Origin: a virus
Virus record (IMG/VR): IMGVR_UViG_3300046791_000499
Location: 64,001-128,000 of that record
Length of the DNA stretch: 64,000 bases
Direction: 5' to 3' (one strand)
Position numbers and translations under genes: made by a program
The notes under the pieces: generated by a model
Told to the model about the DNA's origin: nothing
Seen by the model: the letters and a program-made list of their open reading frames with translations, nothing else
Database searches by the model: none
Shown here: positions 4,448-52,440 of the stretch, in pieces
Numbering within the stretch: the first letter of the stretch is position 1
Layout: every line of letters begins with the position of its first letter

Positions 4448-4642
4448 CTAGTCGCCGGTGGAAGCATCGACGGCAGCAACCCCGAGTTCGACGTCACCAA
4501 CCGCGCCGCTCGCCGCCTCGGCCGTGAAGTCGCCTTTGCGAGCCCGCTTGCGTGTCTTGGCCACGCTACGCTCACAGAACTGTTCCCAGTGGGCACAATT
4601 CTCACCCTCACACCACAAAGTAATCTCGCGCGTATAGCTCAC
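4448..4642 (-). CDS. Small Cys protein whose C-terminus is a copy of baseplate wedge residues
   Basis: 'LWCEGENC...ARKG' followed by 'DFTAEAASGAVGDVELGVAAVDASTGD', identical to part of 13173-14216. Confidence 0.6.
   Translation of the reverse strand: MSYTREITLWCEGENCAHWEQFCERSVAKTRKRARKGDFTAEAASGAVGDVELGVAAVDASTGD
4449..4532. repeat. 84-bp dispersed repeat, copy 1 (copy 2 at 14056-14139); 2 mismatches
   Basis: Direct base-by-base comparison. Confidence 0.95.
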
Positions 4643-4715
4643 AGGTTCGTGTCCTTCAACATGAGTAGTTCGTGGGCTTGGACGCCGAGCACCGATCCAC
4701 GCATACATCGCGGGT

Positions 4716-5492
4716 TCATCGTCGGTTCCACGTACAGCCAGCCAGCGGGACCGGGAGCACAAGATCGGTGCGGAGGGTGGCGAGCTGAAAGCACGTGCGT
4801 GCTGTGTCCTCATAGGCGCGCAGCAAGTTCATGACCTTCGTCGAGGTCACCAGATTTTTCCGCTCGAGCAGGTACTCGAGCGTGCCGTACTCGGCGAGCA
4901 GCTTGGCCGCGGTCTTGGATCCGACCCCCGGGATCCCCGTGTAGTTGTCGGACGTGTCTCCGATCAGGGCGAGCAGGTCCGGGATCCGCTCAGGCGGCAC
5001 GCCGAACTTCTCGACCGATTCATCCGGTCCCCATGTGCGCTTGCGGATCTCGTCGATCATCCGAACCTGGACCGGCTCGTCTCGCACGAGCTGCACCAGA
5101 TCCTTGTCGCCGGAGACGATCGTGACGCGCATGCCCTCGGCTACGGCTGCCGCAACGTAGGTAGCGATCATGTCGTCGGCCTCGTGGTCAGAGGCCGGGA
5201 TGCTGAGCGCCATTTTCCAAAAGCTGCACTGCCTCCGGCAGCCGAGCAGGACTTCGTTGAGACCCTCGGGTCGCGGAGGTCGGTTGGCCTTGTACGTCGG
5301 CCAGATCGAGCGGCGCCAGTTCGAGGAGTTGTCGAAGGGGTCGAACACGGCGACCGCATGTGTGGGCTCGTACCGGATCCGGTAGCGCCCGAGCGCGGAG
5401 CTGAATGCCTCCTCTGGCGGACGGTCAGTCGCGACGTGGAAGTAGCGGCGAGCCGCGTTGTCGCCGTCGACGACGAGCAGGTGTCCGGTCAT
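4716..5492 (-). CDS. 5'-3' exonuclease / flap endonuclease (Pol I N-terminal-like)
   Basis: 'LLVVDGDN', 'YKANRP', 'HEADDMIA', 'SGDKDLVQL', 'GDTSDNYTGIPGVGSKTA'. Confidence 0.95.
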   Translation of the reverse strand: MTGHLLVVDGDNAARRYFHVATDRPPEEAFSSALGRYRIRYEPTHAVAVFDPFDNSSNWRRSIWPTYKANRPPRPEGLNEVLLGCRRQCSFWKMALSIPASDHEADDMIATYVAAAVAEGMRVTIVSGDKDLVQLVRDEPVQVRMIDEIRKRTWGPDESVEKFGVPPERIPDLLALIGDTSDNYTGIPGVGSKTAAKLLAEYGTLEYLLERKNLVTSTKVMNLLRAYEDTARTCFQLATLRTDLVLPVPLAGCTWNRR

Positions 5493-5824
5493 GGCAGATC
5501 CTTGGCTTCGCGGATCTGCGTGGGTGAAACGATACCGGCCGTGATCATCGCGGCGTAGAAGTCGAACCCCTGGCTCACGAGCCCAACCGTGAACGCAACG
5601 TCGGCCGGCGCGACGACCCATTCGCCGAGCGACTCGGTCTCGAACCGGAGCAGCGTCCACAGGTTGCCCTTGACCACCTTGACCTCGTGCACCTTGAACA
5701 ACCCGGTGAAGTGCCGGATCCGCTGGACCGCGCACGGGCCCGTATCGTGGATCGCCCACGTCCAGCACGCGGGCAGCGGCACGCGTTCGAGTTCGTCGAG
5801 GGTCCATTGTCTGGTGCTGGTCAC
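5489..5824 (-). CDS. Hypothetical protein
   Basis: ORF coupled by ATGA overlap to the exonuclease; the upstream extension in the ORF track is tRNA antisense. Confidence 0.6.
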   Translation of the reverse strand: MTSTRQWTLDELERVPLPACWTWAIHDTGPCAVQRIRHFTGLFKVHEVKVVKGNLWTLLRFETESLGEWVVAPADVAFTVGLVSQGFDFYAAMITAGIVSPTQIREAKDLP

Positions 5825-5901
5825 GGGCGTGCTGACCGGACCCAAGCCAGCGGCATTCCCCGACGGCTTGCCCGATGTCCTGGTGCGTGATACGACTTGC
5901 C

Positions 5902-5976: not shown

Positions 5977-5992
5977 TCACCCAAAAATGAAA

Positions 5993-6036: not shown

Positions 6037-6059
6037 GATGTTTGTGGACGGTGTGGCGA

Positions 6060-7291: not shown

Positions 7292-8392
7292 ATGGCCGAG
7301 CCTCCGAGCAGCGTGTGGCGTTTTTCCGGCGGCTGGCTGCTGTGGCGCGTCGCCGACGAGATCGACAGACGACAAGCGACTATCGTCCCGGGCTCGCGGC
7401 CCTGCCGTGCGTGCGGAGGCCGTGGGACATTTGCGGAGTGGGGGCAACAGGAGGTTGGGTTCCTGTTGCCCGATGCCACGGGATTGCCCAGGAGCCTCGC
7501 CGACCGCGAGACGATCATCGGCCGAGAGATCCGGTGGGACCGGGTACTCGTGTGTGATTGCGTGTTTCCGTTTTCGTCGCCAGACATCCGCCCGGAATGC
7601 CCGACGCGTCCAGACACGGTCTCGCTCGCGTGGCTCGTGGGGTTCCTCGCCGAGCTGCCCAAGCCAGCATTCGATTGGCCGGCTCAGTGGCTCGTCGATC
7701 TCGACTGGCGCGAAGCCCAAGGCGATGACTCATGGCAGGCTGTTTGGTGGGCGGAGTTCATGGCCTGGACGCGCGGTGCGGCGATCGACGTCGACCGTCT
7801 CCAGCGTGCGCTCGATGATGCTTACCTCGCGGAGCGTTTGAAACTCGCTCACGCGAACCGGCAGCCGTCGATCGCCGCAGCCGTTCGAGCGGTCGTGGGC
7901 GTGACGAGTGTCTGCGTGCTCGAGAACCGGGTCAGCGGGGACCCGGCCGAACGCTCACTCGAAGTACTCGTTGAAGGCGGCGAGGACGAAGCCGTTGCCG
8001 CGGCGATCTACTCGTCGATGCATCGGGGCATTCCGCTCATCGGCACGGTCTCGGTGATCCTCGAAGGTTCCCCAGCGCTCGGGCTCTGGGATGACTCATG
8101 GGCGGAGGTCAGGTTTTCGCGGCCGTCGTTCTCGGTCGTGTCGCATGGTGGCCTGGACGTCACGTGGACCGCTCACAACGTGGCCGTGATCAAACCGATC
8201 GCGGCCCAGGGCTGGAACTACTGGGGCTACTCGCTGGCGATCGATGAAGAGGTTGTCACCGTCATGTCCACGCCTGGCATGGATGTGTGCGCGCTGCTGC
8301 GCGATGGCATCTACCAGAACCCGGTGCTGGCCAACCGGGTGACCGCGGTCGCGGACAGCAGGACCCTCACCCTGACCAGGGTCGACGGCTAG
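7292..8392 (+). CDS. Chimeric protein: Zn finger + TIGR02996-like motif + baseplate-J fragment + sheath-like domain
   Basis: CRACGGRG; 'DLDWREAQGD'; 'IAAAVRAVVGVTSVCVLEN...LEVLVEGGEDEAVAAAIY...VRFSRP' aligns with 14219-15427. Confidence 0.8.
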   Translation: MAEPPSSVWRFSGGWLLWRVADEIDRRQATIVPGSRPCRACGGRGTFAEWGQQEVGFLLPDATGLPRSLADRETIIGREIRWDRVLVCDCVFPFSSPDIRPECPTRPDTVSLAWLVGFLAELPKPAFDWPAQWLVDLDWREAQGDDSWQAVWWAEFMAWTRGAAIDVDRLQRALDDAYLAERLKLAHANRQPSIAAAVRAVVGVTSVCVLENRVSGDPAERSLEVLVEGGEDEAVAAAIYSSMHRGIPLIGTVSVILEGSPALGLWDDSWAEVRFSRPSFSVVSHGGLDVTWTAHNVAVIKPIAAQGWNYWGYSLAIDEEVVTVMSTPGMDVCALLRDGIYQNPVLANRVTAVADSRTLTLTRVDG

Positions 8393-8656: not shown

Positions 8657-9160
8657 TTAGAACGGGAGCCGATTGCTCGGCTGCTCCAATGTCGCAGGGA
8701 CACTGCCCGGATCAAGCGTAGCTTGATCCCCGGCGAAGCCGGCCTTGTCTGTGTTTGGTGGTTTCCGCTCGCGACGCAACGTCGCAAGCTGCTCGGTGAA
8801 GATCGAAAGGGCAGGCCCGAGCGCGTCGCCGCGGTTCTCGAGCCAGTCGCAAAACACGGGGAACTCATCGGTCCGCAAGCGTCGCTGCAGCTCGTCGAGC
8901 AGGTCGACCACGTGCACTCGCGCCAGGACCTCGCCGATTGGGAGCCGGCACATGGAGATGGTCTCGGCGCTGGAGATGGTGACCTTCAAGGTGGGCGAGC
9001 CCTCGTGATCGACACGGGCCTTGGCGCTCGCGCGGCGGTTGGGCTTACGGCCGCTGGGTCCCGTCAGGCCGGGCACGGTCATGCAGGCGTCCGCTCGCGG
9101 CCGGCCGAAGCCTTGTTGCCGCTGAGTTGCCAGCCGAGCGCGCTTGGCTTTCCGGGTCAT
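8657..9160 (-). CDS. Protein with TIGR02996-like motif
   Basis: 'FPVFCDWLENRGDALG'. Confidence 0.6.
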   Translation of the reverse strand: MTRKAKRARLATQRQQGFGRPRADACMTVPGLTGPSGRKPNRRASAKARVDHEGSPTLKVTISSAETISMCRLPIGEVLARVHVVDLLDELQRRLRTDEFPVFCDWLENRGDALGPALSIFTEQLATLRRERKPPNTDKAGFAGDQATLDPGSVPATLEQPSNRLPF

Positions 9161-9435
9161 CGTGGTGTCGACCGCGGGAGAGCGGCGGCTATTCCGGCCA
9201 ACTGGAGATGAGAGAAAGCTCGCACGCTGATCGGCTACGAAAAGTGAACCGTCCAGCCCCTGCCGTCACTGGTGCTGCATGGACCCCGTCGACCTCGCCC
9301 ATGACCATTGCTTTCAATCTATCCGATGCGCACTCGGCTTCGCATCATGGCACGAGCGGCTTGGCCTGTGGCTGGACGGCACGCTGACGCTGGCGGATCT
9401 GCGCAAGGCCCGGAGGTCTCGGCGCCAAACAGTGG

Positions 9436-11138: not shown

Positions 11139-13163
11139 TTAGTAGACACCTTTGACGGTCAGAACGATGTCGTACCAATCGACGGTTGCCGAGAAGTCGA
11201 GCCGCACTCGGAACGTGCGCTGGGCTGCGGTCGGCAACGTGTACTTCTTCCGAAACGTGAACGGCATCATTCGGCCCGTCGTCCCAGCGCCGTCAATGTC
11301 CAGCGAGTTGAGCGGCTGAGAAGTAGCCACGGTGACCGACCCCGTGACGTCCTTGAGCAGAATGGTCATCGTCGTGGTGTCGGTTCGTCCGTTCCACATT
11401 CCGGTGACCTCGACAAGCACAACGCCGGTTACCTCCGGTGTGATCACGGCGTCCGCGACATCGCCAGTTGTGCCGACGTTGGAGCCGTCGGTTGTGGTGC
11501 CGTCGCCGTGCACCCAGCCCTTCGTAGAGCTGTGGATGCTCTCGTACGCTGCGCCGTTGTGCGTCCGCCACTTCACGCGGCTCGAGTTCAAGAACAGCGA
11601 GCCGGCCTGCGTCGTCGTTGGATCCGAATCCACAGGCACAACGACAAGCGGGGAACGCTTTGGTGCCGTTGCGTCCGTCTCTAGCTTCGCCGCATTGCCG
11701 TCCACGCTCAAGGCGTAGAGTGCGTTTGCATCTCCGAGTCCCAACGCGGCAATCCCAACGCCGCTCGAGGTAGCAGCAGCGGATGAAGTGCCCACGACAC
11801 CCACTGCACCAGTATTGACCGCGACGCCCTTGACTCCGTAGCTGGTCGCGTTGTTGAAGCCCGTCCCGAGAACGCCGTTGACGCCGGCGCCGGTGCCTAC
11901 ACCCACGAGACCGCCATTGCCTGTGAACGGCTCGCTGCAGGACATCGTGCCGATTACCGCGATGATGTCGCCAGCCGCGTTGCCGAGCGTCGACGATCCA
12001 TTCAGCGCCGTTGCCCCGGTGACGGTGAGGGCGGCAATCGTTGCCGCAGCCAAGCAGTCGAAAGTATCAGCCGTGCTCGTCCCGATCGTGCACGTGAAAG
12101 CGCCAGACCCAATGCAGAGCGAGACATCGTGGCCGGCAGTCAAATATCCATCGGTGGAAATGCCGACGGTGGAAATGACGTTGCCTCCGACGATGACGTT
12201 GTATCCGAATGATCCGCTGTATGTGACGTTGAGATAGGCGTCCGTGGAGATGTTCCCGGCCGCATGCACCACGGTGCTCGAGTAGACACCGTTGTAGCCA
12301 AGCACGCTGTTGGCGACCATCGCCTGATCGATGTTGACGTTCTCACCGAAGTGGACGTCGCCTCCGATGGTCTCGAGCACGATCCCGGGTCCACCGAAAT
12401 CGTTGTGGAAGGTGGCCGTGGTGTCGGTCGCCGAGTTGTTGGCCACGGACAACGCCGGCCCGCCGTTGGCCCCGATGAGAACCGAGGCAAGTTCCCCCAC
12501 GAGCGGAGCACCCGTGACGATGAGTGCAGCATCGGCCGGCACCGTGATGGTCACCAAGTCGGTGAAATTCGTTTGGCCTGAGACCGTCAGTTCCTCGGCG
12601 CCGATCGACTTGTGCGTTGGGATCTCGGGCACGAGCACCGTCGCAGCGGTGACGTTCGCGCCGTCGGTCTCGATTTTCCAGATGGCCACATAGCCCGCGG
12701 CAGGGACCGGCGCACCCGCTCCGTTGTTGACTTCCTGGTACGCGACCAGCCCCGCCTCGTTGAGATTGACGTAGGTGTCCTTGCTCGCCGTGAAGGCGTG
12801 CGGGCTGCCAATCGCGACCGTGAACTGCACGACCACGCCGCCGTCATCGTTGGCGTCGACCATCACCCACGACGCGGTGATCGAACTGCTCAATCCCGCG
12901 CCGGTGGTCCACGCGCCCGAGGTCGGGAAGACGAACGTACCGAACAGGCCAGCCGACGACGGGACCATCCGCGAGATGCCCATCGCCCGGATCCACCGCG
13001 CGAGATGCTGCCACTCGTAGTTGACCGTGCCCGACGGCAGAATCACGGAGCCGAGACCGGCAGCCTCCTCGGCAGGCACGGCGAAGGGTCCGCCAGATTC
13101 TCCCCACGTGGGCTCGTCGTAGGTGTCGTCCGGGTTGACTGGGATATCGGTGACGGCGGTCAT
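11139..13163 (-). CDS. Tail fibre / receptor-binding protein
   Basis: Last gene of the tail operon; G/A/T/V-rich beta repeats; C-terminal beta-sandwich. Confidence 0.8.
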   Translation of the reverse strand: MTAVTDIPVNPDDTYDEPTWGESGGPFAVPAEEAAGLGSVILPSGTVNYEWQHLARWIRAMGISRMVPSSAGLFGTFVFPTSGAWTTGAGLSSSITASWVMVDANDDGGVVVQFTVAIGSPHAFTASKDTYVNLNEAGLVAYQEVNNGAGAPVPAAGYVAIWKIETDGANVTAATVLVPEIPTHKSIGAEELTVSGQTNFTDLVTITVPADAALIVTGAPLVGELASVLIGANGGPALSVANNSATDTTATFHNDFGGPGIVLETIGGDVHFGENVNIDQAMVANSVLGYNGVYSSTVVHAAGNISTDAYLNVTYSGSFGYNVIVGGNVISTVGISTDGYLTAGHDVSLCIGSGAFTCTIGTSTADTFDCLAAATIAALTVTGATALNGSSTLGNAAGDIIAVIGTMSCSEPFTGNGGLVGVGTGAGVNGVLGTGFNNATSYGVKGVAVNTGAVGVVGTSSAAATSSGVGIAALGLGDANALYALSVDGNAAKLETDATAPKRSPLVVVPVDSDPTTTQAGSLFLNSSRVKWRTHNGAAYESIHSSTKGWVHGDGTTTDGSNVGTTGDVADAVITPEVTGVVLVEVTGMWNGRTDTTTMTILLKDVTGSVTVATSQPLNSLDIDGAGTTGRMMPFTFRKKYTLPTAAQRTFRVRLDFSATVDWYDIVLTVKGVY

Positions 13164-13172: not shown

Positions 13173-14216
13173 CTATGGGTCGGTGGCGAGCGTGAACGCG
13201 AGGACATCGGGTCCGTCGAGTGCGCTTTCGTCGAGGGTGAAAACATCGGGTGCAGCTTCGGGCGAGAACACCAGCACCATGCGAACGCCGTGCGGGCGCC
13301 CGCGGTAGAGCACGTCGAAGTAGGTTAGCGCCTCGTTCTCGGTCAGCTCGAAGAAGTAGACGACGTAGGTCAGCGGGTCGGGGCGCTCGAGCAACCACGT
13401 CTGCGCTCCGTTCACCAACCCAGCGGCCAAGGCTTTGGTGACCGATGGCTGGCGGTTCGTGCCCACAGCCCCGTCGATCGGAACGAGCACGTTCTGATAC
13501 CTCTCGTCGCTCCAACCGTCCGGGCGGAGGAAACCGAGGTCGCGCCCGAGAGCGTCGAGATGCACTCCGATCGCAGTCAGGACCGAGCCCACCCGCCAGC
13601 GAACCTCCCACGATGATGCGAGCAGCTCGCCCACCGCTGCCGTGAGCACGGCCTGCCACACCTGGATCTCTGGGTCCTTGACCAGCGGCGGGCGCATGGT
13701 CTGGAACCACCGCGTATTCGGATCCACGGGGTTCTGTGCGTAGATCGGATCGCCGATGATCTCGATCGTCGTGGCCAGCGGAACGGTCGTAGTCGACCCC
13801 CACGGCGACCACAGGATCCGCATGTGGTACGCGGTGATGCCATCCTGTTCGTTCGTTTCCCAGTCCGTGGGCATCGACCAGCGGATCGAAACCACGCCCG
13901 TCTCGGTCAGCGCTGCGGTCGCGTCGACCAGGTTGGGCAGCTTCACCCATGCGCTGCCGTTCCAATACTGGTACGCCAACCCGCTGGTCCCGAGGAACGC
14001 GGTCGAGATGTCGATCTCGATCTCGACGAAGGGGTAGGTCCAGCCGACCACGAAATAGTCGCCGGTGGAAGCATCGACGGCAGCAACCCCGAGTTCGACG
14101 TCACCCACCGCACCGCTCGCCGCCTCGGCCGTGAAGTCGGTCCAGATGTCGCCGTCCTCCTGGAACAGCCGAGCGCTCACTGGGTAGTTGGTGAAGTTGT
14201 CGTAGGCGTCTGTCAT
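13173..14216 (-). CDS. Baseplate wedge protein (DUF2612/gpI-like) with N-terminal extension
   Basis: 'TAIGVHLDALGRDLGFLRPDGWSDERY', 'RPHGVR'; follows the J gene. Confidence 0.75.
   Translation of the reverse strand: MTDAYDNFTNYPVSARLFQEDGDIWTDFTAEAASGAVGDVELGVAAVDASTGDYFVVGWTYPFVEIEIDISTAFLGTSGLAYQYWNGSAWVKLPNLVDATAALTETGVVSIRWSMPTDWETNEQDGITAYHMRILWSPWGSTTTVPLATTIEIIGDPIYAQNPVDPNTRWFQTMRPPLVKDPEIQVWQAVLTAAVGELLASSWEVRWRVGSVLTAIGVHLDALGRDLGFLRPDGWSDERYQNVLVPIDGAVGTNRQPSVTKALAAGLVNGAQTWLLERPDPLTYVVYFFELTENEALTYFDVLYRGRPHGVRMVLVFSPEAAPDVFTLDESALDGPDVLAFTLATDP
14056..14139. repeat. 84-bp dispersed repeat, copy 2 (donor, inside wedge gene)
   Basis: Matches 4449-4532. Confidence 0.95.
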
Positions 14217-14218
14217 TC

Positions 14219-15427
14219 CTACGCTCCGGTCACGGTGATATCGGTGAGTTCGTTGTCGATGGCGAACTGCTCACGAACCGCGGCCTCGAGTGTGCCCGTG
14301 TTCACCGGCGGGTCAACGATGTCGACCTCGACCACGATGTTGTCGATGCCGGGGATCCCCGCGTTGTTGTTCACGTAGGCGGCGATCTTGAAGCCGCTGG
14401 TGTTCTCGCCGGGAACGAGCGCCTCAACGTAGGTCACGACGGCTGCCCGGATCGCTGTCTCCCGAGCCGCAATGGCCTCGACGCTCATGTCGCCCGGATA
14501 GCCCTCGCCCTTGGTGATCGTGACCTCGATGTAGATCGCCACGAGTTCGGGGCGCGAGAACTTGATCGTGACCTGGCCGCCGACGTAGTCCGCGTCGATG
14601 ATCCCCACAATCGTGTTGCCGACCGTGTTGACGCCCTTCGCACGCGAGGCTTGGATCGCGGCGGCGACCGCATCGTCGTCGCCACCCACGACCAGGACTT
14701 CGACCCAATGCGTGAGGCCCCAGTAGGCGTCAGGGGTGTTGGTCGGGTTCTCGAGCAGCGAAGCCGAGGTCACCCCCGCGACCGCGCGCACGGCCGCGAT
14801 CATGTTGCTGAGCAGCGCGTCTCGCCACCGCTGCCGATACTCGGCGTCGGTCTCGTCGCTGCGGCCTGGGATCGCATCGGCGACGTTGGGCCCGACTGAA
14901 AGCCAGCCCGTGACCGGCGTCAGGATCGTCCAGTCGGACGCCGCGATCGCTGTCTTCGGTCCGGTCTCGAAGTACTCCCATGTCCCGTCGATCGTACCAC
15001 CGCCAGGGATCGTCACCGCGCCGACCAGCGCCCACGCGCCGGTCTCGTCAGCGAGCGCCACGGTCTGGCCAGCCGGCACGTTGACGTTGGGCCCCACCGC
15101 GGCGAACAGCGGCAGCACGACGGTGCTCCCCACGGCTGCCAGCTTCGGACCGATCCTCGGGGTCAGCAGCAGTTCGAGGCTTGAGCCCTCGGCGACGCCG
15201 TTGGTGCCGGGAGCCGCCGAAATGAACTTCGAGTTGTAGTTGCCCGCGCCATCATCCCACGCGTCCTTCATGACGTTAGCGAAGGTGCGCAGGAGGTCCG
15301 CTGCAGGGCCGTTCTCGACGTCGATGTTGGCGCTGGTCTCGGCCTTGTACTTGTTCTGCAGGTCGAGCAGGACCATGTCGTAGGTAGCCGGCAGCCAGCC
15401 GGTTGTCGTGTCATAGCCGAAGGACAT
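14219..15427 (-). CDS. Baseplate J/gp47-like protein
   Basis: 'AEGSSLE', 'GRSDETDAEYRQR', 'VEVLVVGGDDDAVAAAI', 'KFSRP'. Confidence 0.9.
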   Translation of the reverse strand: MSFGYDTTTGWLPATYDMVLLDLQNKYKAETSANIDVENGPAADLLRTFANVMKDAWDDGAGNYNSKFISAAPGTNGVAEGSSLELLLTPRIGPKLAAVGSTVVLPLFAAVGPNVNVPAGQTVALADETGAWALVGAVTIPGGGTIDGTWEYFETGPKTAIAASDWTILTPVTGWLSVGPNVADAIPGRSDETDAEYRQRWRDALLSNMIAAVRAVAGVTSASLLENPTNTPDAYWGLTHWVEVLVVGGDDDAVAAAIQASRAKGVNTVGNTIVGIIDADYVGGQVTIKFSRPELVAIYIEVTITKGEGYPGDMSVEAIAARETAIRAAVVTYVEALVPGENTSGFKIAAYVNNNAGIPGIDNIVVEVDIVDPPVNTGTLEAAVREQFAIDNELTDITVTGA

Positions 15428-15430: not shown

Positions 15431-15802
15431 CTACGTTCCGATCTCGATTGATGTACCAGTGATCGTCCGAAAGGTCACTTTGATCGTGACCCTTGGACCG
15501 TTCGCCGCTTCGTTGTCCACCGTCACGATGGGCCCCGCAACGACCGACTCGACTCGCGGATGAGCCAGTACGACGTCACGCACGAGCGCACCGCGTTCCT
15601 CATCGCTCGTGTTGGGATCCAGGATCCGGTCGTAGTCCAAGCCCTCATCGGTGTTGAACACGTACTTGCCGAACGGCGTGGCCAGTTGCAGGTAGACCTC
15701 GACCCGCGTGGCGTTGTCGTCGTCCGTCGTGTAGGCCAGCGGGCGGACGAGTTCACCAGCGTTGGCGCCGGTCGTGTACATGTCGAGCGTCATGCCGGCC
15801 AT
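15431..15802 (-). CDS. Baseplate wedge / sheath initiator (gp25-like)
   Basis: 'LQLATPFGKYVFNTDEGLDY', 'HPRVESV'; position before J. Confidence 0.75.
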   Translation of the reverse strand: MAGMTLDMYTTGANAGELVRPLAYTTDDDNATRVEVYLQLATPFGKYVFNTDEGLDYDRILDPNTSDEERGALVRDVVLAHPRVESVVAGPIVTVDNEAANGPRVTIKVTFRTITGTSIEIGT

Positions 15803-16038
15803 GGGTCATCTCCGATATCGGCCAAACACTGTGGTCGGCGATGGTGCGGGTGGCTGAAATACCGGTCCAACGCTGGCTTCGTGAGCGCAACAGGCGGGCC
15901 AAGATTTGGAAGCACCTCGCCGTCGATGCCCATCAAGAGTTCATGTGCGTGCCCCTCGTGCGTGACCCAAGCACACGAAAACCGGCCGGTGGTTCCGCGG
16001 CCAGCCAAATAGGCCATGAGTTGCGCTTCGTCCATCAA
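15790..16038 (-). CDS. Small hypothetical protein within the baseplate operon
   Basis: 82-aa ORF overlapping both neighbours. Confidence 0.5.
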   Translation of the reverse strand: MMDEAQLMAYLAGRGTTGRFSCAWVTHEGHAHELLMGIDGEVLPNLGPPVALTKPALDRYFSHPHHRRPQCLADIGDDPWPA

Positions 16039-37409: not shown

Positions 37410-37424
37410 GATGCATCCGACCGC

Positions 37425-40295: not shown

Positions 40296-40322
40296 GCGGT
40301 CACGACCGGCCAGGCCAGCCGC

Positions 40323-43887: not shown

Positions 43888-45423
43888 TCATGGCTGGTCC
43901 TCTCCATCGTCCGCTGGCGACGCGAGCCCACACCCGAGCGCGAGCACGCGGACACACGCACGCTGCTTGGCTACCTTCGCCGAAGAGGCGACGACCCATT
44001 TGGTGGCGAACGTCTCCCCGTTGGCTCGGACCGCGGCCTTGACCGCATGGACCAGCGCATGCTCGGGCCCGCGGCGGTCGGTCTCGTAGTCGATGCCGCT
44101 CCATCCCGCCATCTGCCGACAGAGCATCGCCACCGACACAGCCAGGTGCGGGTTCTCGGCAAGGTAGCTGACGACGGCCTGGCGAAGTCCGGCCCAGGCC
44201 GCGACCTCGGGCGTTTGCATCGGCTCGATCAAGACCGTGAACAGGTCGAGGATCGGCGCGGAGCCGGTCCCCATGCGGCGCTTGAACTCGCGGGCGAACG
44301 CGTCGTTGTAGGAGCCAGACCGCGCGAGCACCTTGGCCACGCGCTCGAACGCCTTCACCGGCAGCGCTGCATAGTCCTCCGTCCGAATGTTCTCCTCCGC
44401 GCGCGCCGTCGCCTGCGTTCGGCCGACATGACTGGCGCGCTCTCGAAGGGCCTCCGTCCGCGCGTTGATGTGGTCGCAGATCCGCGCGATATCCTCGTGG
44501 CTGTAGGGGAGCGCATCGCCTCGGATCCACGCGGTCAACTGCCGCTGGGTCACGAGGTCCGCGAGGCGTCGGATCGGTGACGTGCAATGTAGGTACCCCG
44601 GCAGGTTCAGGCCGAAGTGTCCACGCAGCCGCGACCCGTACTCGGCGCGGTTCATGGACATGTGGGCGTGCAGCCGTAGCAATTCCACGCCCGCGAGCGG
44701 CGTGGCGAGAGCAGCGTTGATCTGGCTCATGAGATCGGCGCGGTCGGGCGCGTGGATCTTGGCCGTGTGGTTGCGCCACGGCACCGGGATCTCGTGCTCG
44801 GCGCACAGCCTGGCGACCTCGGCGTTGGCCAGGATCATCATCTCCTGCACGATGATGTGGCCGATCGTCTCGCGGGTGTCTTTGAGGCGATGCAGCGCGC
44901 CGTCCTCGGTCGTGACCCAGCCAGTGTTCAAGTCGTAGAACACGAGCGCTCCCCGAGCCCGCCGCTTGTCCATGAGCGCGGAGGCCAAGACGGACATCGT
45001 CTCCATCGGCTGGTGAAACTCATGCGCCATGTCGGCGAGCACGGCGGGGATCTCCGTGTAGGCGAAGCGCTTGCGGCTGGTGAACACCACGCGCTTGACC
45101 TCGGGCAACGCCAGCGGCTCGAGCCCATGATCGAGCAGCATGACGATCCGCATGCCCTGCCGGCGCTCGCCCTCGAGCAGCGACGCCTTGGCCTCGACCT
45201 CCCGGCTGAGCATGGGATGGGTCATGCCATTGGGGAGGTAGCGCGTCTCGACTCGCTCGACCGCGGCGTCGTCCATGCGTGTGCCGATGCCGACGCGGTA
45301 CGCGACGTCGGCGATCGTGACCGTGATCTTCCAGCGTCCGTCCGCGTGCTCGGCCCACACAGCGTCGTCGAGATCCTGCGAATGGCTTGCGTCGATCGTA
45401 ACGCCTTTGTCCGTCTTCGTCAT
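43888..45423 (-). CDS. RNase II/R (RNB) domain exoribonuclease with C-terminal dsRBD-like domain
   Basis: 'TIDASHSQDLDDA', 'IADV', 'EMMILAN', 'HFGL', 'HCTSPIRRLADL'; 'GPEHAL', 'SAKVAKQRAC'. Confidence 0.9.
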   Translation of the reverse strand: MTKTDKGVTIDASHSQDLDDAVWAEHADGRWKITVTIADVAYRVGIGTRMDDAAVERVETRYLPNGMTHPMLSREVEAKASLLEGERRQGMRIVMLLDHGLEPLALPEVKRVVFTSRKRFAYTEIPAVLADMAHEFHQPMETMSVLASALMDKRRARGALVFYDLNTGWVTTEDGALHRLKDTRETIGHIIVQEMMILANAEVARLCAEHEIPVPWRNHTAKIHAPDRADLMSQINAALATPLAGVELLRLHAHMSMNRAEYGSRLRGHFGLNLPGYLHCTSPIRRLADLVTQRQLTAWIRGDALPYSHEDIARICDHINARTEALRERASHVGRTQATARAEENIRTEDYAALPVKAFERVAKVLARSGSYNDAFAREFKRRMGTGSAPILDLFTVLIEPMQTPEVAAWAGLRQAVVSYLAENPHLAVSVAMLCRQMAGWSGIDYETDRRGPEHALVHAVKAAVRANGETFATKWVVASSAKVAKQRACVRVLALGCGLASPADDGEDQP

Positions 45424-45435
45424 GGCTGGTCCTCT
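43888..45435. repeat. 16-bp direct repeat TCATGGCTGGTCCTCT at 43888-43903 and 45420-45435
   Basis: Read directly; flanks the RNase gene exactly. Confidence 0.9.
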
Positions 45436-45716
45436 TTGATCCTCGGGGAAGGTCATCGCGCACGGGCTCGAGCACGCGGGGCACATGTCTCCATCGACCT
45501 CGCTCTTGATCACGTGCCGAGAGACGTGGCCTTGCGTGCACCGAACCGTGAACTGGTCGTACCAACGGTCGGGCATCCCCATGAACATGCGGCCCCCTGC
45601 CTCGCGCTCGCGAGCGGCAGCGGCATCCCGGCGAGCCACGAGGGCGGCGATCTCCGCGTCGATCGATGAAGCCGCCGGAGGCTCGAACGCCTTGGGGTCG
45701 ATCGGATCGAAGGTGA

Positions 45717-46091
45717 TCACAGGGTCAACTCCATGTGCTCGACTGCGCGCTTGGTGATCTGGACGCCGAGCTGCCCGTCGATGTCGACCCACTCGAGCCA
45801 GTTGCTGCGGATCGTCTCGAGCAGCCGACTGCCCCGGGAGGTCTCCTTGAACACGACCATGCGGGTGCTGTGCGGCGCGCTCGCGGAGACGTCGTCGAGG
45901 TTCCACCCGTCCATGACGATCTCGCCAGTACGGACAGGACGCCAGGTCTCGCCGCATGCCTTGGCCACGGCGAGTAGGACCATCTCGGTGTCGCGGTGGC
46001 CGGTGAGGCTGTGGGCTCCCGAGCGGATGAGCCGGGCTGGGGTGATGGTGCAGGTGTTCGTATCCATGGGGTTTAGTTGTTGCTCGCTCAT
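45717..46091 (-). CDS. Hypothetical protein
   Basis: ORF, GTGA-coupled downstream. Confidence 0.55.
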   Translation of the reverse strand: MSEQQLNPMDTNTCTITPARLIRSGAHSLTGHRDTEMVLLAVAKACGETWRPVRTGEIVMDGWNLDDVSASAPHSTRMVVFKETSRGSRLLETIRSNWLEWVDIDGQLGVQITKRAVEHMELTL

Positions 46092-46093
46092 GG

Positions 46094-46525
46094 TCACCCA
46101 AACAGCCAATCCGAGATCACGGCGGTCGCTACGAGAGCGAAGATGAGCGTCCCGAACGGACCCCAACCCCACACGCCAGCGCCGAGCACCCCGAAGGTCA
46201 TGAACGTGACGAGACGGAGACCGCTGCGAGCGGGGCTGGACCTCTTGGCGACGGCCGTGGTCGCGGTGGCACGCATTTCGGTACGCTGCCCGTTGGAGAC
46301 CGAGACGACCTCGGCCTCGATCGTGCCCGGCGGTTCGGGCTCGCGGGTGTTGGTCGGCACGTACGGCGAGCGCGGATCTGGTCGGAACACTGGGACCTGC
46401 GTGATCGTGTAGCCATCGTTCGGAGCGCGACCGCGCTGCAGGCGTTCTTTGAGTTCGGTCAGATCCGGGGGCGCGGGCCGACGCGGATCTCGTGGGGTTC
46501 GTGGCGGACGGTCAGACCTGGCCAT
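46094..46525 (-). CDS. Pro-rich protein with two C-terminal TM helices
   Basis: Hydrophobic C-terminus. Confidence 0.55.
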   Translation of the reverse strand: MARSDRPPRTPRDPRRPAPPDLTELKERLQRGRAPNDGYTITQVPVFRPDPRSPYVPTNTREPEPPGTIEAEVVSVSNGQRTEMRATATTAVAKRSSPARSGLRLVTFMTFGVLGAGVWGWGPFGTLIFALVATAVISDWLFG

Positions 46526-47009: not shown

Positions 47010-47235
47010 GCCGGCCTCGACCGCGCTCGCGCCCCGCTCATTCCCGCCGCGCCCTTGCGGGAATGCCAGCGATGCTGGATGGTTGAACCTTCGCACCGCA
47101 GCCGGCGGCATGCTGCTCAGGGAGAGCCTGAGAGGACTTCTCGGTTGGTTCATCTGGTTCATGAAACACCGTCGGCTGCGGTAGCCTTGCGTGCTCAGCT
47201 TTCAGAGCAGACGCCAATGCGGTAGGCTATCCCGC

Positions 47236-49494
47236 GTGCGCGACGCTCGGCAGGATGGACTCGTCAATGCGGTCACCGGTCTCGGGGACGACGAGATCGA
47301 CCTCCGGCTGCACACCCACCGGATCCCGTCGTATCAGCGATCGGTCTACGAGTACGAGTCGGAGTGGCGCGACAACGCCTACGCCCAACGCGAGGTCAGC
47401 CAGGTTTCTGGCGACATCTTCCGCGAGGGGCTCGACCTCATCAACGTCAAACCCGAAGCGATCGACATCGGCGCTCTCAAGAGCTGGCTCGAGGGGGACA
47501 CTACTCCCAACCCCGACGGATCGATCAACCGCACGGAGGGCCTGCTCAATTACGCAGAAAAGCTCATCGAGCAGGGTGACAAGGTCGGCGGGGCTGCCCT
47601 CTACGTGATCGTCGACGACGGCTTGGATCCCGTCCACCCGCTCGACTGGCGCCGGATCCAGCGGGTCGTCGCCTGGGTCGTCCTCGATCGGTCCGAGATC
47701 GTGCCCTACATCTCCGAGGGCATGGGCATGGAGCCCGAGTATTGGATGCTTTCCGACGTGCTCTCGACCGCGAAGGTCCAGGGCGGCAAACGGCAAGCGC
47801 TGCGGCCCGGTCAGGTCATCCATCACACCCGGCTTTGGCGACACAAGGGGATCCCGCTGAGCGCCCGCGAGGAACGACTCCGGCAGTTCTGGGGCGGGTC
47901 CGTGCTCGAGGTCAACTGGGATGCCCGCCGCGCGATCGAGGAGGGGACCACCTACGCGAACACCTACCTCCATCGCGCCAGCATGATCCACGTGTCGCTC
48001 GCCGAACTGAACGAGATCTACGGGGCCAAGGATCCAGAGACTGGACAGGAGATCGGGACCGAAGTCATCGACCGGCGCATGCGGCAGTTCCGGCGCATTG
48101 CCTCGACCTTGGACATCATGCTGACCGATGGCGGCCGGCAGGGGTCGAAGTCGTCTGACGGGCTCACGGAAATCCAAGGCCGCAACCCGGACAAGGTCGA
48201 GAGCGTCGTCGAACGCACCGGTGATCTGATCCCGATCGTCGAGTTGAACCGGACCCAATGGCAGAGCGGCTGGGGGGCCCCGCGCGAGATCGCATTCGGC
48301 GAGCAAACGAGCGCCCTGCGTGGTGGCGACAGCAAAGGGGCTTGGCAGTCCTGGCAAGGTACGATCGATCTCAAGCGCAAGAAGAAGCGCGTCATCGGCT
48401 TGGTCAACTGGATGCTGACGATCACGTTCGCCTCCCGCGAGGGCCCGACGCACGGCTTGATTCCCACGCAATGGGAGCAGCAATGGCGCCCGCTTCATGT
48501 CCCGTCGGCGATGGAGAAGGCCACGATCGACAAGGCCCGTGCCGACGCCGACAACGCCAGGATCGGGACGCAGGTGGTCACGGCCGAAGAGGTCCGGCAG
48601 CAGCGGATCGTCAACGGCGACGTCGAAGGTCAGCTCACCGTCACCGAAGTGCCGAACTCCGAGAAGGTCACGATCGTCCCGCCAGCTCATGTCGGTATCG
48701 CCAAGGCGATGCTCGACGGTGCGATGGCCGTTGCGACTGGCCAGATCACCAAGGAGTTCTACGCCCGGTACCTGCTGGCGATCGACGGCGCGCGGTTCAC
48801 CGAAGAGGAGGCCAATCGCATCGCCGATCAGGCGGCGGCTGGGATCGTTCCGGGAGCGGCGGCGGCCGAGGTCACCACCGACTCGGCGTCTCCCGTTACC
48901 GCGGCCACCGTCATGGCTTCGGGGGGCCAGGTTGCGCAGGGCAAGATGGCCCCGGAGTTCTTCGAAGAGGCGCTGCAGACCCTCGACCCCGAGCAGTTCG
49001 ATCCCGAGACGGCAGCTCGGCTGCGCGCGGCAGCGGAAGGGAACGATCCTGACGCGCCCGCGCTCCCGCCCGACGCCCCGCTGGTCGCCCCAGTTGGAGC
49101 AGCCACGGCAGTCGCACCAGCCCTGCCGACGACCGACGCCGCGACGCCCGAGGGTCAGCCATCGCCCGCCCCAGCCGCGCCCATCGAGCCCAAGGCCAAC
49201 CCCTTCGCCGTACTCGCCGAGATCCCCGACGATCTCATGACACCCGAGCAGATCGTGGCGGAGATCAAGCTACGCACGCCGCTCCCGATCACCACTCGCC
49301 ACGTCCATGCGATCGCCAAGAAGCACGCGGTCAGGCGCGGGAAGATCAGCGGGGTCACGGGGTACTCGGCCGGCGACGTCGCCACCGCGCTCGCTCGCGA
49401 CAACGGGCTACTCCCGCCGGCTGCCGAAGTCGACGAACCCGTGGTCGATGAGTCGCTGGTCGATGGTGGCGAGCCAGAGCCCCTGGTCGAGTAG
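47236..49494 (+). CDS. Portal protein (DUF1073-like) with long C-terminal extension
   Basis: 'DGLVNAVTGLG', 'GGAAL', 'IHHTRL', 'FWGGSVLE', 'P..IAFGEQ', 'WRPLHVPSAMEKA'. Confidence 0.88.
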   Translation: MRDARQDGLVNAVTGLGDDEIDLRLHTHRIPSYQRSVYEYESEWRDNAYAQREVSQVSGDIFREGLDLINVKPEAIDIGALKSWLEGDTTPNPDGSINRTEGLLNYAEKLIEQGDKVGGAALYVIVDDGLDPVHPLDWRRIQRVVAWVVLDRSEIVPYISEGMGMEPEYWMLSDVLSTAKVQGGKRQALRPGQVIHHTRLWRHKGIPLSAREERLRQFWGGSVLEVNWDARRAIEEGTTYANTYLHRASMIHVSLAELNEIYGAKDPETGQEIGTEVIDRRMRQFRRIASTLDIMLTDGGRQGSKSSDGLTEIQGRNPDKVESVVERTGDLIPIVELNRTQWQSGWGAPREIAFGEQTSALRGGDSKGAWQSWQGTIDLKRKKKRVIGLVNWMLTITFASREGPTHGLIPTQWEQQWRPLHVPSAMEKATIDKARADADNARIGTQVVTAEEVRQQRIVNGDVEGQLTVTEVPNSEKVTIVPPAHVGIAKAMLDGAMAVATGQITKEFYARYLLAIDGARFTEEEANRIADQAAAGIVPGAAAAEVTTDSASPVTAATVMASGGQVAQGKMAPEFFEEALQTLDPEQFDPETAARLRAAAEGNDPDAPALPPDAPLVAPVGAATAVAPALPTTDAATPEGQPSPAPAAPIEPKANPFAVLAEIPDDLMTPEQIVAEIKLRTPLPITTRHVHAIAKKHAVRRGKISGVTGYSAGDVATALARDNGLLPPAAEVDEPVVDESLVDGGEPEPLVE

Positions 49495-49529
49495 GGGAAT
49501 CCGCCCGCGCATCGGACGGTCACCGCCGC

Positions 49530-49823
49530 GTGCGTCAGATGAAGGCCCACCGGTGCTCCGAGTGCAACGCCGTCTCCTACACGGGGCGCCCCGGCCTGTA
49601 CCCGGATCAGTGCATTCCCCACAAGGAGACCTGCTCGGTCTATCCGAGCGCCGGCCAGCGCCAAGTTCTGGCCGAGGCCGACCGGCAGCGACGGGTCGAT
49701 TTGGCGCGCACGACCACCGCTCGCCTGATCGAGCGTGGGTTCCTCTCGGCCGAGGTCCAGTTCGACGCGGTGAAGCTGAGCGCCAGCGATGCCGCGCGGC
49801 TGCTCGTCGACATCGGCGGCTGA
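49530..49823 (+). CDS. Small Cys protein
   Basis: CSEC..C.PH..C. Confidence 0.55.
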   Translation: MRQMKAHRCSECNAVSYTGRPGLYPDQCIPHKETCSVYPSAGQRQVLAEADRQRRVDLARTTTARLIERGFLSAEVQFDAVKLSASDAARLLVDIGG

Positions 49824-49824
49824 C

Positions 49825-50898
49825 CTACCTCGCGCCCTGCCGGATGCCCAAGCGCCGGCCAAGCTGCTGGCCCACATGTCGAGCGTGCTGGCGCCGTCGT
49901 GGGTCCCGGGCTCGCTCGGCTTCGGCCATGGCTTCGAGAGCCTCGCCAACGATCTCGGCCGTTGGGCGGTGGCCGATCTCGAACGTGACGGGTTCGGCCC
50001 CGCCAAACGCGACGGTGTAGGTTCCGGCGGTTGCAGCACTGGCCACGACGGTCGTCACGGGACCGCGCGGCTCGTTGAACATGCGCTCGAGTTCGTCGCG
50101 TATCTGCGTGGTCGTCCGGCCCTCGCCGGCCTCGGGGACCGAGTACTCGTGCTCGCGCCCGTTGATCGAGATCGTGTAGATGCCGGGCTCGAGGTAGGCC
50201 GCCTTCGCTCGAGCAGCCTCCAACCAGTGCAAGAGCAAGACGACCTCGCCGGTGCCGTCTTGGATCTCATCGTCCTCGGACCAGCGGATGCCCCACGCGA
50301 GCGCGAGCCCGGCCGGGCAGCCGCTCGCGAGCCGACGATCAGCCTCGACCTGCAGGTTGGCCATCGCGGCGCCGAAGTCGACGGCCGTCAGGAACGCTTG
50401 CGCGAGCGTCACGTGCTCGCGGCCGGTGCCGTCACACGCCTGGCATGGCCGCGATGCTCGGACCACGACGTGTGCTTGCCGTCGTGGTTGGCGCGTGCGT
50501 GGGCGCTTCTCCAGTACGGTGGTCCACCCGCGGCGCCCGTAGGACTGAACGCTCCCACGCGCACGGATCAAGCAGCCCTGGCCCTCCCATTCATCCTGCG
50601 CCCACTCGATCGCTACCAGCTTCCTGGAGCCGCTCCGAGCGAGGCAAGCCGGGCACGGTCCGACGTCGAGCGTCCCGACGTCGAGTTCGACGAGCAGCGC
50701 CCACGCGAGCGCGATCGGTGGCGGCATCGTCCACGTGGCTGGCCCTGCTCCGAGCAGCATGACGCGGATCCCCTCGCGCACCGAGAAGACCTGCCAGCGG
50801 CTCTTGGTCTCCCTCACGTCGAGCGCGAGCCAGCACCCGCGACCACGAGCCCATCGCTCGAGCACGTCCTGCTGCGCCTCGTGTGTGGCGATCGTCAC
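49825..50898 (-). CDS. Zn finger + TIGR02996-like + sheath/decoration-like domains
   Basis: CPAC, CQACDGTG; 'LQVEADRRLASGCPAG'; 'GIYTISING...TTTQIRDEL..FN'. Confidence 0.75.
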   Translation of the reverse strand: MTIATHEAQQDVLERWARGRGCWLALDVRETKSRWQVFSVREGIRVMLLGAGPATWTMPPPIALAWALLVELDVGTLDVGPCPACLARSGSRKLVAIEWAQDEWEGQGCLIRARGSVQSYGRRGWTTVLEKRPRTRQPRRQAHVVVRASRPCQACDGTGREHVTLAQAFLTAVDFGAAMANLQVEADRRLASGCPAGLALAWGIRWSEDDEIQDGTGEVVLLLHWLEAARAKAAYLEPGIYTISINGREHEYSVPEAGEGRTTTQIRDELERMFNEPRGPVTTVVASAATAGTYTVAFGGAEPVTFEIGHRPTAEIVGEALEAMAEAERARDPRRRQHARHVGQQLGRRLGIRQGAR

Positions 50899-51587
50899 TC
50901 GGTCTGCTCCTGCGCCGCTTTGGCTGCTCGCAGCAGCGCAATCACGGCCACCTTTCGCCATTCCGTGATCGGTGGAAGCCCTGCGATCTCGAGGCGTGGC
51001 GTCGCCAGCCAACACGCGAGACCGTCACCGAGCGGATCGCCGAGCCAGAGCCGTGCGTCTGCGAAGACGGAGAGCGCTTCCCTGGCCACGCTCATGTTCT
51101 GCCAGGTCTCCAGCACGAGCCGCGCGACCTCGCTGGTGATCCCGCCCTCGCCGTCGCACTGCGGACACGGCCTCCTTCGCTTCGCAGGATCGTCAGGGTC
51201 TCGCTCCCACCCGAGCCCCGCTGCCTCGCCGAGCAGCGGCACGTCGGCCGGCATTCGCTTCCACTTCGAGCCCGCGCATGTGCGGCACCCCATGGTGACC
51301 TTCGCGTTCGTCTCCAGCGCCCAGGCCCACAGGAGCAGAACGTCAGCGTCGCCGCATGGCCAGCACTTGCCGAGCCCGAAGATGATCAGGGGTGGCGGGG
51401 CTGAGCTTGGTCCTGGATCTTGGACGTGCCAGCCTCGTGGGCGCGAGCGTTCATGGGCTCCGACGGCGAAGCGACGGCCTGACGTTGCTGCCCACGAGAC
51501 CACCGCAAGGGCGGCCATCTCGTCGTCGGGCTCGCGCTCGCCAGCGCCCAGGCTCTCGATCAGCTCGTCGATGGTGAGGCTAGTCAT
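50895..51587 (-). CDS. Zn finger + TIGR02996-like protein
   Basis: CRTC, CPQCDGEG; 'LSVFADARLWLGDPLG'. Confidence 0.75.
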   Translation of the reverse strand: MTSLTIDELIESLGAGEREPDDEMAALAVVSWAATSGRRFAVGAHERSRPRGWHVQDPGPSSAPPPLIIFGLGKCWPCGDADVLLLWAWALETNAKVTMGCRTCAGSKWKRMPADVPLLGEAAGLGWERDPDDPAKRRRPCPQCDGEGGITSEVARLVLETWQNMSVAREALSVFADARLWLGDPLGDGLACWLATPRLEIAGLPPITEWRKVAVIALLRAAKAAQEQTE

Positions 51588-52440
51588 CGGTGCCCGGGTA
51601 GAGCGGCTCGCCGCGCGCTCGTGCCGAAGCCTGTCGGGCCGCGAGCTGATCGCCCTGGTAGCCGGCGCCGCTGTAGGGGCTCAGGCCGGCTCGGTCTTGC
51701 GGCGTCTGGTCCTTCGTGCGCTCGCCTTTCGGCAGACCCGCGGCCGACTTTCGAAGTTTGGCCTTGCCCGATGGACGCACGCGGACCTGCTTGCGCTTGT
51801 TCTCCCTGTCCACCCAGTGGCTCCCCTCGACCACGTACGCGCGGCCGTCGACGTCGAGCCAGTCGCCGTCCTTGGTCTTGCGTGGCGCCCACACGATCCC
51901 TCCACGCTTCTCGAACACGAGCCGATCGGTCAGCGCTTCCAAGGCAGCCGCGGCCGCTGGGGCTTCGAGCCCTTCGCCCATGAGCCAATCCACGATGTAG
52001 ATTCCGAGCGGGTCGCCATTGAACTGGAGAGCATCCGCGCGAACGAGCAAGGAGGCGCGCTCGCGGCTGTAGTCACGCGAGTAGTCGCCGGCTCGGAGCA
52101 TGGCGAGGTTGATGTCGATGACCTCGCGCCCGGATGCGACCTGTGAGATCTGCGGCGTGTCCCGGGTGTAGCAGGCCGCGCAGCCACCGAGCAGCACGCG
52201 GACGTTGCTGCGGTTCGCCCACACGTCGACGTAGCGTAGGTTGCGTTGTCGAGCACGAGCGATGAACACGGGATCGATGAACGTGCCTTCGTCGAGAGCA
52301 TGCGTCGAGCCATTGCAGAACGTGCACTTGCCGACATCGATCATCCCGAGCTGCGCGCCATTGACCAGCGCCCACAGGACCCGAGCGTGTGGATCCGGCT
52401 CTCGCCAGATCGCGGTCCCCTCGGAGGAGACGAACTCAGC
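51580..52440 (-). CDS. Zn finger + TIGR02996-like + head-closure-like segment (5' end unresolved)
   Basis: CTFCNG, CAAC; 'LLVRADALQFNGDPLG'; 'DGDWLDVDGRAYVVEG..W'. Confidence 0.65.
   Translation of the reverse strand, partial: AEFVSSEGTAIWREPDPHARVLWALVNGAQLGMIDVGKCTFCNGSTHALDEGTFIDPVFIARARQRNLRYVDVWANRSNVRVLLGGCAACYTRDTPQISQVASGREVIDINLAMLRAGDYSRDYSRERASLLVRADALQFNGDPLGIYIVDWLMGEGLEAPAAAAALEALTDRLVFEKRGGIVWAPRKTKDGDWLDVDGRAYVVEGSHWVDRENKRKQVRVRPSGKAKLRKSAAGLPKGERTKDQTPQDRAGLSPYSGAGYQGDQLAARQASARARGEPLYPGTDD

Follow-up and report, generated by a model that had tools for sequence, protein, structure and literature searches.

A module related to J-type baseplate wedge proteins recurs on putative zinc-knuckle accessory proteins of uncultivated phages

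Introduction

Polyvalent or mosaic phage accessory proteins consist of a constant N-terminus followed by C-terminal modules that are shuffled among relatives. Among structural proteins, the J-type baseplate wedge homologue of E217 has been described as "beads on a string", with domains that hold the tail tip and form the handshake linking adjacent triplexes (PMC10329688). Tab and Tai, which are defined by function, are accessory proteins of prophages or satellites that block tail assembly of an invading phage and are paired with a counter-defence gene; Tab is reported to act on the tape measure (PMC10884400), and a text search of the Tai report found no statement that Tai mimics a virion protein (PMC11364771). 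Here we describe three families of zinc-knuckle proteins, two of which carry a J-type module, encoded in a window of 64,000 nucleotides (nt) that comprises bases 64001-128000 of the 143,093-bp virus record IMGVR_UViG_3300046791_000499. The record has direct terminal repeats, is estimated to be complete and has a guanine-plus-cytosine (GC) content of 0.66; gene calls relied on third-position GC, and gene names on profile libraries. An initial annotation had proposed one carrier-payload system in this region, in which non-structural open reading frames (ORFs) display pieces of four virion proteins of the same phage. The observation behind that proposal is confirmed in part and its interpretation supported in part; the pattern is real and narrower than proposed, with one robust payload type and not four.

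A J-type wedge module on accessory proteins

Judged from the predicted protein sequences, the region holds three separate, uncharacterised families of phage accessory proteins built on DnaJ-type CxxCxGxG zinc knuckles. Family A is represented by ORF 7292, family B by the tandem 51580 > 50895 > 49825, and family C by ORF 34779 together with a paralogue at 60856-62019 of the genome. The features of ORF 7292 and of its structural counterpart, the J-type wedge protein of this phage (hereafter J), are as follows, with lengths in amino acids (aa) and expect values given as E.

7292-8392, plus strand: ORF 7292, family A zinc-knuckle accessory protein, 366 aa; GC by codon position 0.67/0.51/0.79
7403-7426, plus strand: CRACGGRG knuckle of ORF 7292, its residues invariant in the family A alignment
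7838-8146, plus strand: J-type wedge "bead" module of ORF 7292, aa 183-285; 39-40% identical to the phage's own J
14219-15427, minus strand: J, a J-type baseplate wedge (triplex) protein of 402 aa; match to phrog_6 ("baseplate wedge subunit") with E 6e-24
14534-14806, minus strand: homologous module within J, aa 208-298

In J the phrog_6 match spans aa 7-384, and E217 gp44 and Pam3 gp22 are among the solved wedge or "triplex" proteins reached by a profile of the protein. Residues 251-341 of ORF 7292 (in a 424-aa numbering) align with aa 208-298 of J at 39% identity over 95 aa (BLASTP against the ORFs of the window, E 5e-10), and the iterated local search jackhmmer connects the module to the phage's own J with E 2e-37. 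A PHROG scan of ORF 7292 gave no match. When a profile of three payloads, those of ORF 7292 and of the relatives P0002 and P0069, was searched against PDB sequences, the top two hits were both wedge proteins (9ndy_H, E 6e-5; Phi92 gp145, E 5e-4). The family A relative P0002 possesses the J module (E 4e-11 to this phage's J), and its aa 375-444 match phrog_6 with E 2e-6, at profile positions 252-298 only; the C-terminus of P0069, a family C relative, constitutes a full J module. The module is preceded by an "ExDxxyRxR" helix; two phages carry it as a fusion to family A, and at least one further phage has it on family C. Chance was considered as a source of the similarity and rejected. None of the accessory proteins has the full-length J architecture of N-terminal bundle, middle and C-terminal domains; the homology covers the globular middle module of about 100 aa, and there is a solid case that this module, on families A and C alike, truly derives from a J-type baseplate wedge protein.

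Two virion pieces had originally been assigned to ORF 7292. The J part stands, while the second is weak: the C-terminal 83 aa resemble the protein at 24853-25692 with a shuffle z-score (z) of 5.2 only, and by eye they resemble a module of P0002 and P0004.

The J payloads, for which homology to the structural protein is evident, have remained in frame at 31-40% identity, so that for this module the outcomes named in advance as refuting the initial proposal did not arise. The P0002 module scores 47 bits against the J of this phage (E 4e-11) versus 27 bits against the J of its own phage (E 4e-4), the two J proteins being 24% identical to each other. Because the P0002 copy is thereby closer to a foreign J than to its own, the comparison indicates that the module is old and was inherited with the accessory gene, not captured afresh from the resident J. 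This contradicts the recent or repeated capture from the phage's own genes that had been proposed, the sole recent copy being located in apparently non-coding DNA, as described below.

ORF 7292, which is recognised by the family A hidden Markov model (HMM) with E 8e-78, does not belong to the tail operon and is encoded on the other strand from the tail genes. Its four metagenomic homologues have aa 6-200 in common at 35-47% identity and differ in their C-termini, and P0002-P0005 combine at least four different C-terminal modules; in P0003 and P0005 a "GTGRTTR" P-loop-like module takes the place of the J module. A related-locus search of viral contigs with ORF 7292 returned nothing, and no score above 0.80 came from an ESM Atlas search with the family A carrier.

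In six related contigs (L003-L008) the family A genes are co-oriented between genes for Dit-like and Pam3_gp18-like baseplate proteins. N6_N4 DNA methyltransferase genes are likewise inserted within the baseplate gene cluster of these contigs. The placement of the family A genes would agree with the proteins being ordinary minor virion components of the baseplate or decoration kind, whose shared domains reflect paralogy among structural proteins, and J-type proteins are indeed built of repeated small domains (PMC10329688). Such an explanation nevertheless appears improbable, given the position and orientation of ORF 7292 relative to the tail operon, the occurrence of families B and C in early regions of other phages and the failure of the carriers to match any PHROG or Pfam structural family; with DNA methylases also inserted in those tail modules, position alone proves little.

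Family C retains the helix that precedes the module

The features relevant to family C are listed below.

34779-36134, minus strand: ORF 34779, family C, 451 aa; four CxxCxGxG knuckles at nt 35376-35834 and a C-terminal "ExDxxFRxRI" motif at nt 34821-34931
13173-14216, minus strand: 347-aa neighbour of J, presumed second wedge subunit, assigned by its position in the baseplate module
23464-24840, minus strand: tail sheath; phrog_205, E 3e-25, and tblastn matches to annotated sheaths

ORF 34779 has at least 31 homologues and is recognised by the family C HMM with E 4e-82; the family shares four knuckles and conserved motifs that include "CxxCxGTGHNL" and "LPRWRRGELRH". The knuckle region has four repeats, as the DnaJ cysteine-rich family PF00684 does, and scores 25.8 bits against that model, below the gathering cut-off of 32.7; a tblastn search with ORF 34779 of 50,697 deposited phage genomes gave no match. 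The C-terminus of the protein is a "GLxRxxxExDxxFRxRI" helix, the same helix that precedes the module in the J proteins and in P0069; it is conserved in P0068, P0087 and P0090, and in P0069 the chain continues into the full J module. By this alignment, ORF 34779 keeps only the helix motif of the J module. Its aa 402-438 also give weak matches to PHROG baseplate families (E 2-3e-3). The payload first attributed to this ORF, a piece of the presumed wedge subunit 13173-14216, did not hold up, as the pairwise comparison reaches a z of 1.3-1.7, a value attained by 8% of shuffles and not significant. That neighbour of J itself gave no match in Pfam or PHROG scans. In the family C paralogue, a stretch of 36 aa is 44% identical to aa 336-371 of the sheath (E 0.002), in a region that aligns with the family relatives.

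Three families and no common carrier

The coding status of the named ORFs is supported by the normal codon-position GC of ORFs 7292, 8657, 34779, 49825, 50895 and 51580 (third-position GC content 0.77-0.83), and metagenomic homologues were found for ORFs 7292, 34779 and 49825; five of the seven named ORFs (7292, 34779, 49825, 50895 and 51580) are judged to be real genes with homologues in metagenomes. The reported CxxCxG knuckles are present, one each in 7292, 49825 and 51580, two in 50895 and four in 34779. ORF 8657, which had been grouped with the carriers, has no CxxCxG knuckle and meets the family HMMs at E 4 and 0.3, and is therefore not a demonstrable member of family A, B or C.

8657-9160, minus strand: ORF 8657, basic protein of 167 aa containing a "VFCDWLENRGD" motif; 9 nt ahead of its ATG (9160) is a promoter-like site, GGAAT-N17-GGTC (9170-9195)

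The single constant carrier that had been proposed resolves into three families. The family B HMM finds ORF 34779 with E 1e-5 in the knuckle region only, and its scores for ORFs 7292 and 8657 are E=1 and E=4. In hhalign comparisons, families B and C are linked with 87% probability over 28 columns, A and B with 28%, and A and C with 4%, the aligned stretches being 14-28 columns long. Since the signals between families are either absent or confined to the knuckle, the families are judged to be separate. What they have in common is their layout, as the alignments of every family display a conserved N-terminal zinc-knuckle part and mosaic C-termini, a pattern that domain shuffling has evidently produced.

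A likeness to TIGR02996 had also been invoked as a unifying trait. The model matched none of the seven named ORFs at E<0.1 and none of 59 family B members at E<0.01, and the likeness comes down to short resemblances of the types "ADxLxxxGDPxG" and "VFxDWxxxRG". Scans of the seven ORFs with Pfam, NCBIfam and PHROGs gave sub-threshold zinc-finger matches only, and literature searches on TIGR02996, and on DnaJ-like zinc fingers together with baseplates, returned nothing relevant; the term CXXCXGXG does occur in some papers on marine phages.

The relatives of families B and C are found among small early-type ORFs, beside an integrase and an endolysin, replication genes (DnaB, primase), or RecT and methylases. 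Relatives thus occur in early or replication regions, and the evidence supports a classification of the proteins as accessory and not core structural, in line with the non-structural nature initially ascribed to the ORFs.

The family B tandem

Family B is represented in the window by three genes.

49825-50898, minus strand: ORF 49825, family B, 357 aa; N-terminal domain, split zinc ribbon, "ADxxLAxGxPxG" helix, insert at nt 49957-50184 and basic tail at about nt 49828-49908
50895-51587, minus strand: ORF 50895, 230-aa family B paralogue that lacks the insert; its stop codon and the GTG start of 49825 overlap (GTGA)
51580-52500, minus strand: ORF 51580, family B paralogue identified with the family HMM; 5' end uncertain

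The three are tandem paralogues that overlap stop to start and are translationally coupled; the family HMM recognises 49825 with E 5e-68, 50895 with E 3e-19 and 51580 with E 1e-14, the last at model positions 72-241 only. An overlapping plus-strand ORF of 785 aa (49789-52146) was rejected as a real gene, as the homologues sit on the minus strand. An exhaustive phmmer search with ORF 49825 found at least 60 cluster representatives, of which 27 scored E<=1e-10, and a word-indexed search with ORF 50895 found only itself. A family B pattern retrieved two loci from viral contigs and nothing from the species-representative genome set.

In the family alignment an N-terminal "WARGRG" helix is followed by a "VALAWALLVE" helix, CPxC, an inserted domain, RPCxACxGTGRE, the helix "VHADxLLAxGDPxGxALAWGLRWS", an optional insert and a conserved basic tail, "HARHIGxQLGRRLGVRR". 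PF00684 is matched by 17 of the 59 members (best E 7e-7), and ORF 50895 reaches 15.7 bits. An AlphaFold2 model of ORF 49825 has a predicted local distance difference test (pLDDT) score of 82, and above 90 for aa 1-230. No significant fold neighbour was found for it, the best Foldseek hit in the PDB being YbjN/AmyR (E 0.047), the best BFVD hit having E 0.008, and the best hit of a wide VIA-align search with the whole model being a designed mini-protein (Z 6.5). Family B offers a confident predicted fold that looks novel.

A sheath-derived payload had been proposed for ORF 49825, and here the evidence is divided. Residues 278-353 of the protein align with aa 105-171 of the sheath (nt 24328-24528) at 34% identity over 76 aa, with a BLASTP E of 1e-3 among the window ORFs and a shuffle z of 10.5, whereas phmmer scores the insert against the sheath at E 0.008 in a set of 3,500 sequences. 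Inserts of the 49825 type occur in nine relatives ("YTVTVxGHEY...ALNAQGGPATF"), and a profile of these finds 49825 weakly (E 0.003) and does not match the sheath. The similarity is consequently best regarded as borderline. The head-closure payload ascribed to ORF 51580 fared worse, as the comparison with the head closure protein 25689 gives a z of 2.4, which is not significant.

At the 5' end of ORF 51580 the third-position GC signal changes frame near 52,480-52,520. There is no in-frame ATG, GTG or TTG between 52728 and 52344, and the conserved "LWALV" helix is left without an in-frame start; a frameshift, an assembly error or an unusual start could account for this. A sub-profile of the family B N-terminus did not recognise the upstream 190-aa ORF at 52341-52913 as the missing part.

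The surroundings of families B and C bear on another explanation, namely that the zinc-knuckle proteins bind nucleic acids or host proteins, as regulators of early infection or factors of host takeover, and that their C-terminal modules are convenient small folds, re-used without relation to virion assembly. The early, replication and methylase genes beside families B and C would fit such a role, as would weak matches to the anti-TRAP and Q-like antiterminator zinc-finger regulators, the conserved basic tail of family B and the fact that most family members have no virion-like module. Re-use of this generic kind does not readily explain why a J module of the same subtype, with the same preceding helix, recurs on two families, or why the family A gene is found in or beside tail modules in three phages; we consider it unlikely, though worth keeping in view.

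A recent copy and a tape-measure tip

Two further duplications of tail-protein sequence involve the features below.

4449-4532, minus strand: 84-nt copy of 14056-14139 (aa 27-53 of the 13173-14216 protein), forming the last 27 codons of ORF 4448-4813
18812-21616, minus strand: tape measure

The 84-nt copy is 98% identical to its source and in frame, with both mismatches synonymous, and its junction creates a new TAG. The 27 copied residues are identical to a glycine-rich, N-terminal part of the 13173-14216 protein and, judged by eye, are unlikely to fold alone. Thus the near-identical in-frame copy that had been reported in ORF 4448 does exist, but the ORF around it does not have the appearance of a gene: outside the copy it shows no codon-position GC signal (0.57/0.57/0.52) and a GC of about 0.56, and for these reasons it is probably non-coding DNA downstream of a flap-endonuclease gene (4716-5807). 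The copy itself is probably a recent duplication or recombination scar. Just downstream of it, a 110-aa ORF (4103-4435, minus strand) contains CxxC pairs, with E 0.08 to the family C knuckle and E 0.007 to P0042, a relative of family B.

The second case lies 26.3 kb before the window (locus L017; genome 37691-38656, plus strand), where an FHA-domain protein (Pfam E 8e-11) includes a 28-aa segment with sharp boundaries that shares 71% identity with the tape-measure C-terminal tip (aa 897-924 of 934). Since the DNA is only 69% identical against 71% for the protein, the tip peptide appears to be conserved. The FHA protein has no zinc knuckle. As originally claimed, accessory proteins do bear pieces of virion proteins, the J module and the tape-measure tip being the cases in which this holds.

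These cases can be set against the initially proposed arrangement, one modular system whose constant carrier presents fragments of the phage's own J, sheath, wedge and head closure proteins as decoys, dominant-negative poisons or integrated baits. We know of no defence sensor of J-type wedge proteins, which counts against this arrangement. There are three carrier families in place of one, the carrier of the tape-measure tip lacks a zinc knuckle, significance is lacking for two of the four payloads claimed, and the sheath-like insert is family-wide with a profile that misses the sheath; moreover, the payloads are ancient and unmatched to the protein of the resident phage, and ORF 4448 is probably non-coding. 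Such a system is, in our estimation, quite unlikely, even though the J module occurs on two zinc-knuckle families, the tape-measure tip is 71% identical in protein against 69% in DNA, the wedge-neighbour segment exists as an identical 27-aa copy, the insert of 49825 retains a borderline likeness to the sheath, and assembly-blocking defences are known in Tab and Tai (PMC10884400; PMC11364771).

A looser variant is that high-GC phages of this group encode virion-contact mimics, in which contact elements of tail proteins are grafted on non-structural scaffolds and compete at assembly interfaces. Such elements may comprise the bead of the J wedge protein and the tip helix of the tape measure, perhaps with a strand of the wedge neighbour, on scaffolds provided by families A and C and the FHA protein. 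They may act as poisons of tail assembly in co-infecting relatives, a reading prompted by the foreign-type J bead of one relative, or as decoys for host sensors of tail proteins. This must be regarded as speculative and rather doubtful.

Genome setting

The remaining structural genes of the window, in addition to those listed above, are the following.

about 34.3 kb down to 11.1 kb, minus strand: head-and-tail module
30783-34280, minus strand: head polyprotein, 1165 aa, with DUF2213 and a 2H phosphoesterase domain
28255-29457, minus strand: major capsid protein
26678-27157, minus strand: neck protein
18815-17082, minus strand: match to PF18352 (a phage N-terminal-domain Pfam family), followed by Dit-like and Pam3_gp18-like proteins
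16035-17078, minus strand: hub
15431-15802, minus strand: gp25-like wedge protein
11139-13163, minus strand: probable fibre, 674 aa, named by position alone
47191-49494, plus strand: portal

In the head polyprotein, 2_5_RNA_ligase2 is matched with E 2e-8 and DUF2213 with 21.0 bits, against a Pfam cut-off of 22; a similarity of 33% over 73 aa connects its residues 538-603 with residues 163-235 of the baseplate protein at 18027-18815. Elsewhere in the window, a 737-aa protein (43888-46101, minus strand) contains an RNB exoribonuclease domain (Pfam E 5e-55), and the adjoining genes 56833-57315 and 57312-58304 (minus strand), neither of which has a Pfam match, share a segment of 57 aa at 51% identity (E 1e-11).

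The motif GGAAT-N16-18-G(G)T(C/T/A) occurs 57 times genome-wide, for example at window positions 9170-9195, 37419-37444, 40304-40329 and 49496-49521. At many of these sites a start codon lies 8-10 nt downstream, too close to leave room for a ribosome-binding site, which suggests that the motif is a promoter for leaderless transcripts.

Discussion

We consider it about an even chance (roughly 0.5) that the three zinc-knuckle families with shuffled C-termini include, in members of two of them, a J-derived domain that in its detached form binds wedge or baseplate intermediates. In solved baseplates the J-type proteins are strings of small domains through which contacts between adjacent wedges, and to the tail tip, are made. 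For such a domain detached onto a zinc-knuckle scaffold, the most plausible targets would accordingly be assembly intermediates of the wedge or baseplate. There it could tether the zinc-knuckle part, or it could compete with J, and the outcome would be either help for the phage's own assembly or hindrance of a co-infecting relative. The finding that one relative carries a J module of foreign type makes us lean slightly towards interference.

Several observations weigh against this reading. Among about 100 family members, the J module was seen on just three accessory proteins. With a pLDDT of 35, the AlphaFold2 model of ORF 7292, built from five sequences, is too poor to support the fold of its J module. 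As a small alpha/beta domain, the module may have a generic role apart from the baseplate, and the co-orientation of the family A gene inside the tail module in L003 and L006 would also fit a minor baseplate component. The roles of decoy, poison or bait would be putative, and the pattern is best seen as an interesting lead and not as an established system.

If the J-bead fusions do bind baseplate intermediates, they would be the first phage proteins recognisable from sequence that act on tail assembly through a piece of the target's own partner. Interference with assembly between phages, or dedicated assembly chaperoning, would then become predictable from genomes, whereas functions such as those of Tab and Tai are at present found by screening only. 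Independently of function, three protein families of considerable size, until now without annotation, are defined for uncultivated phages.

Compared with described systems, the closest relationship is to the J-type wedge proteins (phrog_6; the lineage of E217 gp44, Pam3 gp22, P2 gpJ and T4 gp6), of which the middle domain and its preceding helix are homologous to the module of ORF 7292, P0002 and P0069. In contrast to these, the accessory proteins are devoid of the N-terminal core bundle and the C-terminal domain of J, begin with a zinc-knuckle N-terminus and are mostly encoded outside the baseplate operon. The knuckles themselves are of the CxxCxGxG type seen in the DnaJ cysteine-rich domain (PF00684) and in anti-TRAP (PF15777), with E values down to about 1e-6 to 1e-5 for 17 of 59 family B members and ORF 34779. 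Unlike the DnaJ-like zinc fingers, however, family B has two knuckles only, split by an inserted domain of about 60 aa, and the HPD-bearing J domain of DnaJ/Hsp40 had no Pfam match in the ORFs or the family members. With Tab and Tai, which are likewise accessory proteins encoded by phages, there would be a functional analogy for the interference reading only. Finally, the families resemble the polyvalent or mosaic accessory proteins in their conserved N-terminus and exchanged modules, and differ in that one of the modules is a domain of a structural protein, which is unusual. What appears to be new here, then, are three protein families and the unusual, recurrent fusion of a structural-protein domain across two of the families and three phages.

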